In this document: in pieces, positions 23,256 through 30,103 of the stretch
Numbering within the stretch: the stretch's first letter is position 1
Layout of the letters: every line of letters starts with the position of its first letter
Source of the DNA: Chloroflexota bacterium
GTDB lineage: Bacteria; Chloroflexota; Limnocylindria; Limnocylindrales; Limnocylindraceae
Assembly: GCA_041180765.1 (NCBI GenBank)
Contig: JBEGQU010000055.1
Span: forward strand, 1-34,836
Length of the DNA stretch: 34,836 bases
Reading direction: 5' to 3'
Position numbers and translations under genes: made by a program
The notes under the pieces: generated by a model
What the model saw: only the letters and a program-made list of their open reading frames with translations
Told to the model about the DNA's origin: nothing
Databases searched by the model: none

Positions 23256-23924
23256 ATGAGCCACTACTCCGTGGAACCCGCCGACAAGCCCAAGGCGCTG
23301 ACCGCCCAGACGATCAAGGCGCTGCGCCACGAAGAGGTGCAGGGGATCTCGCGTCGCAGGCTGCTGCGCACGACGATCGGCGCCGGCTTCGCACTCTGGC
23401 TGCTCGAGGTGACGACCGGCACCCTCGGCTTCCTCTGGCCCAACCTCGAGGGCGGCTTCGGCGGCAAGGTGCGCATCGGCACCCTCGACGACCTGAAGAA
23501 GGGGAACGTGGGCCTTCCGATCGCCGAGGGCTACCCCGCCTACGTGCAGGAGGCGCGCGCCTTCATCATGCTCGTCGATCCGAGCCGCCAGGAGTTCGTG
23601 CCGGGCGAGGATCCGACCGGCGAGGGGAGCGCGCTGAACGTGCGCGCCCTCTACCAGCGCTGCCCGCACCTCGGTTGCAAGCCGAACCCGTGTATCAAGA
23701 CCTACTGGCTCGAGTGCGCCTGCCACGGCAGCCGCTACGACCGCCTCGGCACCAAGGCCGACGGCCTCGGCCCGGCGCCGCGCGGCATGGACCGCTTCGC
23801 CCTCTCCGTCGACGACAGCGGCGTGTTGACGCTCGACACCGGCAAGATCAGCCTCGGCTCCGCGCCCGTCGCGCTCGGCCAGCCGGGGATCGAGGCGCCG
23901 CGCGCCGCCACGGGGTGCATCTGA
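23256..23924 (+). CDS. Rieske [2Fe-2S] subunit with Tat signal
   Basis: SRRRLLRTTIGAGFALW twin-arginine signal-anchor. Cluster boxes CPHLGC and CACHGSRYD. GGGGGAG SD upstream. Confidence 0.9.
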   Translation: MSHYSVEPADKPKALTAQTIKALRHEEVQGISRRRLLRTTIGAGFALWLLEVTTGTLGFLWPNLEGGFGGKVRIGTLDDLKKGNVGLPIAEGYPAYVQEARAFIMLVDPSRQEFVPGEDPTGEGSALNVRALYQRCPHLGCKPNPCIKTYWLECACHGSRYDRLGTKADGLGPAPRGMDRFALSVDDSGVLTLDTGKISLGSAPVALGQPGIEAPRAATGCI

Positions 23925-24937
23925 TGGCCGACGAGCAGCGCGACCTCCCCGTGCCGGCGGAGCGGGAGAGCGCCCCCGTGCCGCGCCTCTCGAGCCCGGC
24001 GGCGATCCACACCCACGGGCTCGATGCCGAGCGCGCCGCGAAGATCGTGAAGCAGAGCGGCTCCTCGCGCGCCGCCGCGCTCCTCGGCGTGATGATCGTG
24101 ACGATCTTCGTGCTGCTCTACGCCTTCTACGACCAGGGGCTTCCCGGCACGACCGGCTCGTCGCGACTCGCCGCGGCGCGCGAGGAGCAGTACCTCGAGA
24201 CGGTGAAGCGCGGCTACAACCTGTTCCAGGCGAACTGTGCCCGCTGCCACGGCGACCAGGGGCAGGGCGGCATCGGCCCGGTCCTCAACGACCAGGGGAA
24301 GCTCCTCTCCCACCTCACGCCGGCGTACCTGAAGAACGTGCTCACCGTCGGCGGCCGCTACGTGTGCGGCAACGCCAACTCGCTCATGGGCGTCTGGGCC
24401 GACGTCAACGGCGGCCCGCTGAACTACCGCGAGATCGAGGAGCTCATCGCCTGGATCCGCGCCACGAAGGACGACACGATCACCGTCACCGATCCGGCGA
24501 CCGGCGAGAAGGTCGAGGTGACCGGCTGGCGCGATGCCGCCTACGAGCCGGCCCCCGATGCGACCCCCGTCCCCGCCTGCTGGAGCGACGCCTTTGCCGC
24601 GTCGCCGACGCCGACCCCCTCGGGCGGCACGCCGAGCGCTCCCGCGGGCGAGACCTACACGATCGTCGCCATGGGGGTGAAGTTCACCACCTCGACGCTC
24701 GAGGTCGCGGCAGGAACGGCGTTCCGCATCGCCTTCGACAACCAGGATGCCGGCATCCCGCACAACGTTGCGATCCACGAGGGGACCGTCGACGCGGTCG
24801 GCAAGGAGCTCTACCAGGGGGCGATCTTCCCGGGCGTGGCGCAGAAGACCTACGACATCCAGGCGCTCGCCGCGGGCAGCTACGTGTATGTGTGCACGGT
24901 GCACCCGAACATGGTCGGCACCCTGGTGGTGAAGTGA
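23924..24937 (+). CDS. membrane-anchored monoheme cytochrome c fused to a type-1 copper (cupredoxin) domain
   Basis: The ATG shares one nt with the Rieske stop (TGATG). Contains a TM helix, a CARCH heme motif, a Pro/Thr/Ser linker, then cupredoxin ligands HNVAIH...CTVHPNM. Confidence 0.85.
   Translation: MADEQRDLPVPAERESAPVPRLSSPAAIHTHGLDAERAAKIVKQSGSSRAAALLGVMIVTIFVLLYAFYDQGLPGTTGSSRLAAAREEQYLETVKRGYNLFQANCARCHGDQGQGGIGPVLNDQGKLLSHLTPAYLKNVLTVGGRYVCGNANSLMGVWADVNGGPLNYREIEELIAWIRATKDDTITVTDPATGEKVEVTGWRDAAYEPAPDATPVPACWSDAFAASPTPTPSGGTPSAPAGETYTIVAMGVKFTTSTLEVAAGTAFRIAFDNQDAGIPHNVAIHEGTVDAVGKELYQGAIFPGVAQKTYDIQALAAGSYVYVCTVHPNMVGTLVVK
24752..24819 (+). repeat. arm A of an inverted repeat between the two cupredoxin genes
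   Basis: 63/68 nt identical to the reverse complement of 27958..28025. A second 26-nt block, 24893..24918, is identical to the reverse complement of 27859..27884. Confidence 0.9.
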
Positions 24938-27212: not shown

Positions 27213-27287
27213 AGCGGGGTGGAGCAGTGGCAGCTCGTCGGGCTCATAACCCGAAGGTCGGTGGTTCGAATCCATCCCCCGCAACCA
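27213..27287 (+). tRNA. initiator tRNA-fMet (anticodon CAU), CCA encoded
   Basis: Closely parallels E. coli tRNA-fMet: AGCGGGG-UG-GAGC-AGUGGCA-GCUC-G-UCGGG-CUCAUAA-CCCGA-AGGUC-GGUGG-UUCGAAU-CCAUC-CCCCGCA-A-CCA. Has three G:C pairs in the anticodon stem, A11:U24, and an unpaired 1:72. Confidence 0.93.
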
Positions 27288-27327: not shown

Positions 27328-27843
27328 CTAGGGACCCGAGACGAACGCCGCGATCTCCTCGATGCTGCCGAACGGCCCCACCTGGTAGTCGAGCACGCGC
27401 CCCTGCGCATCGAGCAGGAGCGTCAGCGGCGCGGCGTTCACCGGCACCTGGGCGGCGATCGCGCCGCCGGGATCGAGCAGCGTCGGCCAGGTCGCGCCGA
27501 GGTCGAGCGCCGCCTCGAGCGCGGGCCCCGACTCGTCCCGGTAGAGCACGCCGACGAGGCTGGCGGCGTCCCCATCGGTCGCCAGGTACTCGGCGAACAG
27601 CGGGATCTCGTCGCGGCAGGGAGCGCACCAGCTCGCCCAGAAGTTCATCAGGAGCCGCGTGCCCCCCTCGTCGAGCAGTTCGCCGTAGCCGGGGCGGGCG
27701 GCGGCGTCGCCGAGCAGTTGTGCGCCGGCGATGTCGATCGTCCGCCCCACGAGCGGCGTGGGGGAGGCGGCGATCCCCCCGCAGCCGGTGACGATGAGCA
27801 GCGCTGCGAGCAGGGCGGCGACCGGCCCGCCCCGGCGGATCAC
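27328..27843 (-). CDS. TlpA/ResA-family thiol:disulfide oxidoreductase lipoprotein
   Basis: The GTG overlaps the upstream stop (GTGA). Lipobox LLIVTGC and thioredoxin motif FWASWCAPC. An ATG at 27867 is an alternative start. Confidence 0.85.
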   Translation of the reverse strand: MIRRGGPVAALLAALLIVTGCGGIAASPTPLVGRTIDIAGAQLLGDAAARPGYGELLDEGGTRLLMNFWASWCAPCRDEIPLFAEYLATDGDAASLVGVLYRDESGPALEAALDLGATWPTLLDPGGAIAAQVPVNAAPLTLLLDAQGRVLDYQVGPFGSIEEIAAFVSGP

Positions 27844-28931
27844 TTGGCGCTCAGGCTCCCGACCATGTTCGGGTGCACCGTGCAGACGAAGACGTATTCG
27901 CCGGCCGGCAGCCCGACGATGGTGTACGTGCGCTCGTCGGCGCCGTTGAAGATCTCGCCCTGGAAGAGCTCCTTGCCGACTGCGTCGACGGTCCCCTCGT
28001 GGATCGCCACGTTGTGCGGAATCCCAACGTCGTAGTTGACGAACCGCAGCTTGCGCGGCTCCCCGGCCGGGAGCTCGATGGAGGGGAGCAGGAAGGCGAC
28101 CTTCTCGGCGCAGATCGTCACGACGCCGGTCTCGTCGGGGGCGCAGGCGGGGCCGCTCGGGCTCGGGCTCGGACTCGCCGCGCCGCCGCCGAAGATTCCG
28201 GCCTGCGTCCCGCCGACGAAGACGAAGAGCAGGGAGAAGGCGACGATGGCGCCGAGCGGGGCGCGGCGCGGCGCCGGCGACACCAGGTGGCCCGAGGCAT
28301 CGGCCGCTTCGACCGCGCGGTACTCGCGTCCGGCATCGACGAGCCAGCCGACGAGGGCGAGCGCCGTCATCGCGGCGCCGAGGAGCAGCCACGACGCACC
28401 GATCGCGGCACCGAAGAGGAGGACGGCGGCCCCGAGGCTCACCAGGAAGGGGAGCAGCGAGGGGGGCGGAAGGTGGACGCCCTCGGGCGGACCCGCCGGC
28501 TCGACCGGCTGCGCCACATCCGCGGCGGCGACCAGCGCGTTGCCGTGCCCGTCGCCGAGCAACTCGTATTCGCGGAACGCTTCGCGCCCCCAGGCGAGCA
28601 GCGCGGCCACGAAGAGGGCGGCGGCGACCCAGAGCGCGATCCCGCCGAGTGCGACGGAGAAGAAGAGCGCGGCGGCCGCGGCCGAGATCAGGAACGGGGC
28701 GAGGCTGGGCCCGGGGAGGTGGATCCCGGCCGGGGGCACCTCGGCGCGGGGCGGCAGGCCGACCCGGCGGCGCCCGGCGCGGGCGTAGCGCCAGAGGACC
28801 CAGGCGTAGTAGCCGGCCACGAGGAGCAGCGCGCCGATCGGGAGGAGGCGGATGAGCGCCCCCCAGTCGGGGGCGACGAGTGGCCCGAGGAGCGAGACGA
28901 GCCACTCGAGCAGGGAGCGGAGGAACTCCAT
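27840..28931 (-). CDS. polytopic membrane protein: two tandem CtaF-like (oxidase subunit IV-like) modules fused to a cupredoxin domain
   Basis: 363 aa. The internal repeat is GIHLPGPSLAPFL..(2 TM)..WGREAFREYE and GVHLPPPSLLPFL..(2 TM)..WLVDAGREYR. A Ser/Pro linker follows, then HNVAIH...CTVHPNM. Confidence 0.8.
   Translation of the reverse strand: MEFLRSLLEWLVSLLGPLVAPDWGALIRLLPIGALLLVAGYYAWVLWRYARAGRRRVGLPPRAEVPPAGIHLPGPSLAPFLISAAAAALFFSVALGGIALWVAAALFVAALLAWGREAFREYELLGDGHGNALVAAADVAQPVEPAGPPEGVHLPPPSLLPFLVSLGAAVLLFGAAIGASWLLLGAAMTALALVGWLVDAGREYRAVEAADASGHLVSPAPRRAPLGAIVAFSLLFVFVGGTQAGIFGGGAASPSPSPSGPACAPDETGVVTICAEKVAFLLPSIELPAGEPRKLRFVNYDVGIPHNVAIHEGTVDAVGKELFQGEIFNGADERTYTIVGLPAGEYVFVCTVHPNMVGSLSAK
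27958..28025 (-). repeat. arm B of the inverted repeat between the two cupredoxin genes
   Basis: See arm A. It encodes the identical peptide GIPHNVAIHEGTVDAVGKEL. Confidence 0.9.
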
Positions 28932-28943
28932 CGCGCGCCTGGC

Positions 28944-29108
28944 CTAGGCGGCCGTGTCCATCGCGTGGATGATGATCAGCGTCATCGTCGTCATCGCGAC
29001 GCCGAGGGCGTAGAGCATGGCCACGCCGCCGATGTCGCCGGAGAGCACGTAGTAGACGGTGCCGATGGCGACGAAGAGGGCTCCGAAGGCGACGGCGAAG
29101 CGTTTCAC
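28944..29108 (-). CDS. 54-aa two-helix membrane protein (below the ORF-track cutoff), possibly the N-terminal half of a CtaF-like subunit
   Basis: GTG start 5 nt after a strong GAGGAGGG SD, with high GC3. Translation: VKRFAVAFGALFVAIGTVYYVLSGDIGGVAMLYALGVAMTTMTLIIIHAMDTAA. The stop lies 12 nt before the next gene. Confidence 0.6.
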   Translation of the reverse strand: MKRFAVAFGALFVAIGTVYYVLSGDIGGVAMLYALGVAMTTMTLIIIHAMDTAA

Positions 29109-29149
29109 GGGACCCTCCTCTGCGGCGCTCTGCTTTGGCGCGGCACGGC

Positions 29150-29155
29150 TACATT
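29150..29155 (+). promoter_or_regulatory. putative -10, TACATT-N6-GTG(29162)
   Basis: Hexamer 6 nt before an in-frame GTG of the CtaG ORF. It overlaps a minus-strand TAGAAT at 29153..29158. Confidence 0.35.
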
Positions 29156-29158
29156 CTA
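29153..29158 (-). promoter_or_regulatory. putative -10 (TAGAAT) for the small-membrane-protein/cupredoxin/TlpA operon
   Basis: Near-consensus hexamer on the minus strand. It predicts a ~38-nt leader carrying the GAGGAGGG SD. Confidence 0.35.
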
Positions 29159-29161
29159 CCC

Positions 29162-30103
29162 GTGAGCAGAATTCCCGCCCACGGACCGCTCCCCCCCGAG
29201 CCGGGCCTCGACGCGCTCCTCTACTGGGCCTCGCCGCCGCTGGTGACGCTCGCGGCGCTCGCCGTCCTCGCGCTCTGGCTGCTCGCCGTCCGCCGCGTCG
29301 GCTCCGAGCATCCCGCCAACCCGGTGCCCCGTCGCCGCACGGCGTACCTCGCCGCCGGCCTCGGGTTCCTCCTGCTCGCCCTCCAGTCGCCGATCGAGCG
29401 CTACGACACGACCCTCTTCAGCGTCCACATGGTGCAGCATCTGATCCTCCTCTTCCCCGTGCCGGTGCTGCTGCTGCGCGCCGGACCCGTGACGCTGCTG
29501 CTGCGCGTCGCCTCCCCCCGCTGGCGCGCACGCCTCCTCGCCGTGCTCCACGGACGGGTCGTCGGCGCGCTCGGGCACCCGCTCGTCGGCTGGCTGCTCC
29601 TCCCCGCGGTGATGTGGGCCACGCACCTCTCGCCGCTCTTCGACGCTGCGCTCGAGGACCCGCTGCTCCACGATCTCGAGCACCTGCTCTATCTCGGCAG
29701 CGCCCTCCTCTTCTGGGCCCCCGTCGCCTCCGTCGATCCGCTCCGCCACCGCCTGTCGCGCCCCGCCGCCCTCGGCTACCTGATCTCGCAGATGCCGCAG
29801 AACAGCTTCTTGGGCGTGGCGATCATGTGGTCGGGCGCGGTGCTCTATCCGCACTACGCCACCCTCGGGCGCACCTGGGGTCCCGATCCGCTCGTCGACC
29901 AGCAGCTGGCGGGAGCGCTGATGTGGGCACTCGGCGACGCGCTCTTCCTCGTGGCGATCTTCGCCGTGCTCGCCGCCTGGATGCGCGATGATGAGCGCGG
30001 CACCGGGCGCACCGATACCGCGAGCGCGGCGGCGCTCGCCGAGATCAACCGCCGTGCCGACCTGCTGGCGGCACGGACTGCAGGAGAGGAGCGCACCCCA
30101 TGA
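29162..30103 (+). CDS. cytochrome c oxidase assembly protein, CtaG (caa3/Bacillus) type
   Basis: Polytopic membrane protein with FSVHMVQHLILL and HDLEHLLYL His motifs. I prefer GTG 29162 (leaderless geometry) over the track start TTG 29135. Confidence 0.8.
   Translation: MSRIPAHGPLPPEPGLDALLYWASPPLVTLAALAVLALWLLAVRRVGSEHPANPVPRRRTAYLAAGLGFLLLALQSPIERYDTTLFSVHMVQHLILLFPVPVLLLRAGPVTLLLRVASPRWRARLLAVLHGRVVGALGHPLVGWLLLPAVMWATHLSPLFDAALEDPLLHDLEHLLYLGSALLFWAPVASVDPLRHRLSRPAALGYLISQMPQNSFLGVAIMWSGAVLYPHYATLGRTWGPDPLVDQQLAGALMWALGDALFLVAIFAVLAAWMRDDERGTGRTDTASAAALAEINRRADLLAARTAGEERTP

Follow-up and report, generated by a model that had tools for sequence, protein, structure and literature searches.

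A tandem subunit III-like hairpin joined to a type-1 copper domain in Limnocylindria and its likely association with an aa3-type oxidase

Which complex is served by a membrane protein that joins two copies of an oxidase-like hairpin to a blue-copper domain and is encoded at a site where core oxidase genes are missing? This question is raised by a 34,836-nucleotide (nt) stretch of DNA from a Chloroflexota bacterium (contig JBEGQU010000055.1, assembly GCA_041180765.1, positions 1 to 34,836; hereafter the window), whose nearest relatives belong to the Limnocylindrus/Aquidulcis clade of the class Limnocylindria, a group of freshwater Chloroflexota. The two genes concerned encode a protein of 363 amino acids (aa) with six helices and a C-terminal cupredoxin, here termed F2cup, and, directly upstream, a two-helix membrane protein of 54 aa. 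Based on the analyses presented below, we consider it likely that both belong, as accessory membrane subunits, to an A-family (aa3-type) haem-copper oxidase with a tethered blue-copper carrier feeding CuA. Two groups of related loci were compared: the window's own clade, comprising about 30 loci at 59–69% identity, and about 50 more distant loci of soil or sediment Limnocylindria at 36–42% identity.

Membrane modules, cupredoxin and the small upstream protein

The membrane part of F2cup is built around a tandem repeat (Table 1). Both copies follow the consensus H-L-P-x-P-S-x-x-P, two hydrophobic helices and W-x-x-(E/D)-A-x-R-E-Y, and an ungapped alignment of the two covers 58 aa with 50% identity (E = 4e-8). 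This is the tandem arrangement that a first-pass annotation of the window had described. The two modules are kept in 22 of 22 aligned family members; invariant in this alignment are H71/P73/G74/P75/S76/P79...W114/E117/Y122 in module 1 and H153/P155/P157/S158/P161...W196/D199/E203/Y204 in module 2. Their presence in all members, together with the invariant motif residues, indicates that the duplication is older than the divergence of the family. Two further parts had escaped the earlier description, an N-terminal helix with a PDW motif and a transmembrane (TM) helix (residues 1–51) and a sixth TM helix (residues 224–243). An AlphaFold model of the protein (mean predicted local distance difference test score (pLDDT) 71, predicted template modelling score (pTM) 0.38) has helices at residues 2–19, 23–51, 78–95/98–138, 160–177/179–213 and 224–243, followed by a disordered Gly/Ser/Pro linker and a confident β-sandwich at residues 271–362 (pLDDT > 90). 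Clusters of Arg and Lys occur after helix 23–51, after each module and before helix 224–243. With six helices and positive charges expected on the inside, this pattern would have the H-x-P-x-P-S and R-E-Y motifs face the cytoplasm and the cupredoxin lie outside.

Profile comparisons relate the modules to the actinobacterial oxidase subunit CtaF. The Pfam family PF12270 (Cyt_c_ox_IV) was matched by 22 of 22 family members at E ≤ 0.1, with a best E of 3.4e-10. The window protein scored 20.4 bits (cut-off 26.9), with module 2 on profile positions 79–125/132, and one orthologue (L150) exceeded the cut-off with 46.2 bits in two stretches. For profile-profile alignment, 33 diverse CtaF proteins were taken from a representative library; a search of the protein database for CtaF had yielded Mycobacterium only. 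The Mycobacterium tuberculosis CtaF sequence was checked against PDB chain 8hcr_H. In hhalign against the set of 33, the module aligned to residues 84–137 of the M. tuberculosis protein, comprising helices 3–4 and the FEYY motif, with a probability of 96.7% (E = 3.5e-10). The score was 55.8; 100 column shuffles gave 12.2 ± 2.9 (maximum 22.9), and the reversed alignment scored 23.1. Among PDB sequences, the profile of the module matched residues 10–63 of R. sphaeroides COX3 (1m56_C, E = 1e-4), residues 543–599 of the Thermus caa3 I+III fusion (2yev_A, E = 5e-4), which mark the start of its subunit III part, residues 9–64 of mammalian COX3 (7o37_c, E = 3e-3) and the C-terminal extension of Bacillus subtilis aa3-600 subunit I (E = 7e-3). 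The features of the N-terminal COX3 hairpin, H-x3-P-S-x-W-P, two helices and W-x-x-(D/E), are thus detectable by profile, and module 2 is the copy nearer to both CtaF and COX3.

In actinobacteria, subunit III is represented by CtaE plus CtaF, the latter providing helices 1–2, and the contact to complex III is made by CtaE/CtaF (PMC8361435). "CtaF-like" and "subunit III-like" are therefore one and the same statement. Judged by sequence, both modules are the helix 1–2 hairpin of subunit III, corresponding to CtaF helices 3–4, which refines the earlier proposal that they resemble the C-terminal half of CtaF. The helix at residues 23–51, joined to module 1, is moreover collinear with CtaF helix 2, the following loop and helices 3–4 (D22-W23 on E35-W36). 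We do not claim a complete CtaF within F2cup; the N-terminal 62 residues alone gave no significant CtaF match.

A two-helix open reading frame of 53–67 aa lies directly upstream of the F2cup gene in most of about 80 related loci of both clades, and the 54-aa frame is called as a gene on a near-identical contig of the Joint Genome Institute (JGI). The earlier suggestion that this protein represents the N-terminal half of CtaF held in part. The alignment of the small proteins matched CtaF residues 9–60 (helices 1–2) in register, with a probability of 65% in hhalign (P = 6e-5), and its score of 29.5 exceeded 100 column shuffles (11.3 ± 2.1, maximum 17.2) and the reversed alignment (14.5). Against this, PF12270 gave sub-threshold matches in only 3 of 22 orthologues (profile positions 9–55, E = 4e-4 to 0.05) and no match for the window's 54-aa protein, and the small-protein profile found nothing meaningful among PDB sequences. 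A complication is that F2cup helix 23–51 plus module 1 also aligns to CtaF from helix 2 onward. The assignment of the 54-aa protein to CtaF helices 1–2 is thus moderately supported.

The Ser/Pro linker (residues ~244–265) and the cupredoxin that had been reported behind the modules are both present. The cupredoxin (residues 266–360) exceeded the Pfam cut-offs narrowly (Cupredoxin_1, 27.3 bits; Copper-bind, 22.4 bits) and has the full ligand set H306, C350, H353 and M356, invariant across the family, with the loop C-T-V-H-P-N-M. The family profile matched amicyanin (E = 5e-13) and auracyanin A (E = 1e-8) among PDB sequences, the top Foldseek matches of the domain were Roseiflexus auracyanin and amicyanin, and NCBIfam gave weak amicyanin/plastocyanin matches. 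Owing to the low confidence of the modelled membrane part, Foldseek matched the cupredoxin alone. The cupredoxin fold, the His/Cys/His/Met ligands and the C-x2-H-x2-M loop place the domain in the type-1 blue-copper class. Copper-chaperone families of the PCuAC and Sco1/SenC type gave no match at E ≤ 1 in the Pfam scan, and with a type-1 site in their place we judged a copper chaperone unlikely. Copper binding at an extracytoplasmic site and electron transfer are the most likely functions predicted for this domain.

In the freshwater clade only, the short linker and the first cupredoxin strand contain two cysteines (…GPAC…VVTIC…; window 28137–28190, residues ~248–265), which could form a disulfide or a second metal contact; soil relatives have Gly/Ala/Pro/Ser linkers of 40–60 residues without those cysteines.

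A second cupredoxin is encoded in the window as a fusion to a cytochrome c of the Rieske/cytochrome b6 complex. It shares 61% aa identity over 92 aa with that of F2cup, in agreement with the paralogy proposed before, and the two genes have a 205-nt inverted block of 76% identity in common. Since the cytochrome c of the Rieske/b6 complex carries this paralogue, a path haem c → Cu → Cu → CuA is chemically and genetically plausible, and so would be a copper-to-copper relay from the Rieske/b6 complex to the oxidase.

Linkage to oxidase genes in relatives and in the freshwater clade

The association of the module with an oxidase, put forward conditionally in the first-pass annotation, is borne out by gene order in the more distant relatives. 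In about 50 of about 50 distant loci, a divergent CtaG gene is followed by COX2, COX1, COX3, the small gene, the F2cup gene and a thioredoxin-like gene; ctaC-ctaD-ctaE thus sit between CtaG and the small gene. COX3 in these loci has 210–223 aa and matches only positions 78–255 of the Pfam COX3 model, i.e. it is of the five-helix type without helices 1–2, and COX1, with 545–559 aa, is too short for a C-terminal extension of the bo3 type. In the distant loci the missing hairpin would therefore be supplied by the F2cup protein alone. COX2 retains the CuA ligands, has no CxxCH and carries a C-terminal type-1 cupredoxin of its own. Within the same genome this domain and the F2cup cupredoxin share 41–100% aa identity: they are 100% identical in five loci (L002, L006, L038, L045 and L055) and 41–81% identical in the other genomes. 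These values suggest concerted evolution of the tethered cupredoxins and point to episodic gene conversion between the two copper domains.

Two independent metagenome contigs, L150/L169 (FWPU01001723.1, 1205–10635) and L142, display a different arrangement. A GltD-like flavoprotein, cytochrome b6, petD, Rieske and cytochrome c-cupredoxin genes are followed after 19 nt by COX1, COX3, the small gene, the F2cup gene, thioredoxin and ABC genes, with no COX2 core and no CtaG. This join may represent a real operon fusion of complexes III and IV or an assembly chimera via the repeated cupredoxin-coding block. Seven further sediment or soil Limnocylindria loci (L123, L127, L128, L130, L143, L157 and L163) have the order Rieske, cytochrome c-cupredoxin, Kelch propeller, indicating that the Kelch membrane protein is a conserved companion of the Rieske complex beyond the window's clade.

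As in the window, none of the about 30 loci of its own clade has ctaC-ctaD-ctaE between CtaG and the small gene; the absence is clean. That the core oxidase genes are missing from the window had been noted earlier, and we likewise found neither COX1 nor COX3 nor a COX2 core there. Where own-clade loci are long enough, an operon encoding Rieske, cytochrome b6, cytochrome c-cupredoxin and Kelch proteins lies on the other strand, 2–6 kb beyond the thioredoxin-like gene. The F2cup gene is under strong purifying selection within this clade (dN/dS, the ratio of nonsynonymous to synonymous rates, 0.05–0.14 over 45 pairs). Riverine metatranscriptome contigs of at least 95% identity cover parts of it, and two of them (28847–29106 and 28877–29134) run in one piece from the small gene into the beginning of the F2cup gene. 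According to the supplement of a 2026 study, Limnocylindraceae (n = 60) encode CoxA/B/C/D (PMC13212565); the core oxidase genes are therefore probably located elsewhere in this genome. Attempts to locate them gave little. A COX1 search of the protein database was filled by soil relatives of at least 85% identity and was uninformative for the window's clade, and four DNA metagenomes compared with the relatives' COX genes returned fragments of many organisms with no link to this genome.

Proposed role and competing readings

In the proposed oxidase, F2cup would supply, twice in tandem, the hairpin that equals subunit III helices 1–2 and CtaF helices 3–4, with a partner COX3 that, in this bacterial class, would be of the five-helix type lacking it. 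The sixth helix would take the chain to the outer face, where the flexible Ser/Pro linker would hold the type-1 copper domain. Most likely this tethered domain carries single electrons to CuA of subunit II; copper would do here what the cytochrome c domain on subunit II does in caa3 oxidases. The probable donor is the paralogous cupredoxin joined to the cytochrome c in the adjacent Rieske/cytochrome b6 complex. The 54-aa protein would be the separately encoded counterpart of CtaF helices 1–2. For the second hairpin copy, docking towards complex III may be considered, purely by analogy with mycobacterial CtaE/CtaF.

Several observations weigh against this assignment. With regard to the protein, the window sequence by itself stays under the PF12270 cut-off, actinobacterial CtaF chains were not among the matches of the PDB profile search, the modelled membrane part is of low confidence (see pTM above), and one hairpin at most fits the canonical subunit III site, which leaves the second copy without a role there. 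With regard to the genome, ctaCDE do not adjoin the pair in the window's own clade, and no COX1, COX2 or COX3 core was found in the 34.8-kb window or the next 10 kb of the same contig (about 45 kb in total). An oxidase in this genome rests on the family-level statement in the supplement cited above. A metagenome scan with the window's cupredoxin revealed no COX2-cupredoxin locus of the freshwater clade; for this clade, it yielded F2cup-type and cytochrome c-type loci only. Finally, the metatranscriptome contigs are of low depth, and DNA carry-over into RNA libraries is possible.

The genomic points would be accounted for if the pair had been re-deployed in the freshwater clade, leaving the aa3 oxidase after removal of ctaCDE from the locus. 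The pair would then bring a membrane-anchored blue-copper site to the nearby Rieske/cytochrome b6/cytochrome c-cupredoxin/Kelch complex, as its subunit or partner, or would serve another acceptor. In line with this, the roughly 30 clade loci lack ctaCDE and have the Rieske/b6 operon close by on the other strand, the about 45 kb of contig show no COX genes, the metagenome scan revealed no COX2-cupredoxin locus of the clade, and the 205-nt block shared by the two cupredoxins comes with longer identical peptide runs. However, CtaG, which is specific for haem-copper oxidase assembly, has been kept beside the pair, all subunit III/CtaF-like motifs are invariant under a dN/dS of about 0.1, and CoxA/B/C are reported for the family (PMC13212565). 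We therefore regard re-deployment as unlikely, if the best of the alternatives.

Slightly less probable still is a role as assembly factor, in which the cupredoxin would pass copper on to CuA or CuB or keep it while the oxidase matures, with CtaG, the YHS protein, the thioredoxin-like lipoprotein and the copper P-type ATPase as partners. Many genes of the neighbourhood are indeed concerned with maturation (Caa3_CtaG, YHS, Redoxin and an HMA/E1-E2 copper P-type ATPase within 10 kb), and these stayed together in the window's clade after ctaCDE had left. Yet the complete and invariant type-1 set (H...C-x2-H-x2-M) is typical of electron carriers, the nearest matches in sequence and fold are amicyanin and auracyanin instead of PCuAC or Sco proteins, and a domain of this kind is found on COX2 of the relatives at the place taken by cytochrome c in caa3 oxidases. 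A mere chance likeness, by which F2cup would be an anchored plastocyanin-like carrier with generic hydrophobic hairpins unrelated to oxidase subunits, would fit the sub-threshold single-sequence Pfam match, the ease with which TM profiles give spurious matches and the automatic JGI name "plastocyanin", but it is very improbable: the profile-profile scores lie far over the shuffled and reversed controls, the PDB and CtaF matches keep the register of the H-x3-P-S-x-W-P ... W-x-x-E motifs that COX3 and CtaF possess, and synteny with ctaCDE is strict in about 50 loci.

Returning to the oxidase assignment, a more far-reaching version of it can be offered only tentatively and is in our view rather doubtful. 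Limnocylindria might possess a "copper-wired" chain in which up to three covalently tethered, concertedly evolving type-1 copper domains form a fixed relay within an obligate III–IV supercomplex; the cytochrome c of the Rieske/b6 complex, COX2 and the duplicated subunit III/IV-like protein would each carry one. The second hairpin would dock the two complexes, and in the freshwater clade, which is abundant, the module would have become genetically uncoupled from ctaCDE.

The closest known counterpart is CtaF (cytochrome c oxidase polypeptide 4) of the CIII2CIV2 supercomplexes of M. smegmatis (6adq/6hwh), M. tuberculosis (8hcr) and Corynebacterium glutamicum (7q21). F2cup shares with it the homologous hairpin of P-x-S-x-W-P, two helices and E-Y, is encoded together with a five-helix COX3 of the CtaE type in the distant loci, where the hairpin would replace subunit III helices 1–2, and is preceded by a small protein resembling CtaF helices 1–2. 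However, CtaF is a single four-helix chain of about 140 aa without an extramembrane domain, whereas here the N-terminal half appears as a separate gene, the C-terminal hairpin is doubled, and the 363-aa chain of six helices has two extra helices and the C-terminal type-1 cupredoxin. The actinobacterial electron link, moreover, is the dihaem QcrC and not copper. The same hairpin, with its H-x3-P-S-x-W-P ... W-x-R-D/E motif, is found in seven-helix COX3 and in the bo3 and aa3-600 quinol oxidases. In the latter two, helices 1–2 are fused to the C-terminus of subunit I, so that the Limnocylindria protein would be another case of the hairpin moving between polypeptides; unlike in all of these, it occurs twice, on its own polypeptide and with a redox domain attached.

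As in caa3 oxidases (Thermus, 2yev; Bacillus), where cytochrome c is part of subunit II, a carrier tethered to the oxidase would make a soluble carrier unnecessary, and COX2 of the Limnocylindria relatives has its C-terminal carrier domain in the same position. The difference lies in a type-1 copper domain replacing haem c and in a second copy tethered to the subunit IV-like protein. Membrane-anchored blue-copper proteins that replace cytochrome c include sulfocyanin (SoxE) of the SoxM supercomplex of Sulfolobus acidocaldarius, the auracyanins of Chloroflexus and Roseiflexus, and halocyanin, and plastocyanin-like subunits have been proposed for the same role between quinol-oxidising complex and terminal oxidase in ammonia-oxidising archaea. 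All these carriers are separate lipid- or helix-anchored proteins, whereas here the complex III cytochrome c, a subunit III/IV-like membrane module and, in relatives, COX2 each have a copper domain covalently attached. Some homologues bear the automatic names "aa3-type cytochrome oxidase subunit IV", "cupredoxin domain-containing protein" or "plastocyanin". Our literature search returned no paper pairing CtaF with a cupredoxin, none on a Limnocylindria oxidase, and no description of a doubled helix 1–2 hairpin with a redox domain.

Proton uptake, the lifetime of the enzyme and the III–IV contact are known to be influenced by subunit III and its split forms. Together with the COX2-cupredoxin and cytochrome c-cupredoxin fusions, F2cup suggests that mobile cytochrome c has given way to tethered copper centres in a class of soil and freshwater bacteria that is both widespread and abundant. 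It offers a testable case of electron wiring between complexes built from fusions, and it bears on the copper demand of these bacteria in lakes and soils.

Features of the locus

The features of F2cup and its surroundings are listed in Table 1. The window has a G+C content of 70–77%. The small gene and the F2cup gene are separated by 12 nt, and the GTG of the former is preceded by a strong Shine-Dalgarno sequence (GAGGAGGG, 29113–29120). The stop codon of the F2cup gene overlaps the start of the thioredoxin-like gene (GTGA), indicating translational coupling.

Table 1. Coordinates of the F2cup gene pair, the parts of F2cup and associated features in the window
Feature	Position	Strand	Remarks
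F2cup gene (363 aa)	27840..28931	-	Six helices and C-terminal cupredoxin; open reading frame confirmed
F2cup residues 1–51: amphipathic helix, invariant P21-D22-W23, first TM helix	28779..28931	-	Followed by an Arg-rich loop, predicted on the cytoplasmic side
F2cup module 1, residues 66–124: HLPGPSLAP, two TM helices, WGREAFREY	28560..28736	-	hhalign against CtaF, 93.5%
F2cup module 2, residues 147–206: HLPPPSLLP, two TM helices, GWLVDAGREY	28314..28493	-	hhalign against CtaF, 97%
F2cup sixth TM helix, residues 224–243	28203..28262	-	Predicted from positive-inside charges to take the chain to the outer membrane face
F2cup Gly/Ser/Pro linker, residues 244–265	28137..28202	-	pLDDT < 50
F2cup type-1 (amicyanin/auracyanin-like) cupredoxin, residues 266–363	27843..28136	-	Ligands H306, C350, H353, M356
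Gene of 54-aa two-helix membrane protein	28944..29108	-	GTG start; open reading frame confirmed
TAGAAT, -10-like box	29153..29158	-	About 45 nt upstream of the 54-aa gene; similar TACAAT/TATAAT in same-clade relatives
Thioredoxin-like (TlpA/ResA-type) lipoprotein, WCAPC	27328..27843	-	Follows the F2cup gene in both clades
Caa3_CtaG oxidase assembly factor	29162..30103	+	Divergent from the 54-aa gene
Monoheme cytochrome c fused to paralogous cupredoxin (24659–24934)	23924..24937	+	Last redox subunit of the Rieske/cytochrome b6 operon; proposed electron donor

Upstream of the small gene, a TACAAT, TATAAT or TAGAAT box occurs in the freshwater clade (window 29109–29161; L009, L020, L021, L027 and L028). 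In some freshwater relatives it lies merely 7–10 nt before the ATG of the small gene, suggesting leaderless transcripts; in the window, the distance is about 45 nt and the strong Shine-Dalgarno sequence follows. The N-terminus of the thioredoxin-like protein is lipobox-like (LIVTGC), and the protein is a TlpA/ResA-type candidate for keeping copper-site cysteines reduced. At the tRNA-Met gene (27213–27287), metatranscriptome contigs cover positions 27214–27273 at very high depth, with a variant carrying an insertion of 1–2 nt behind 27227. This pile-up most likely represents the conserved tRNA of many organisms.

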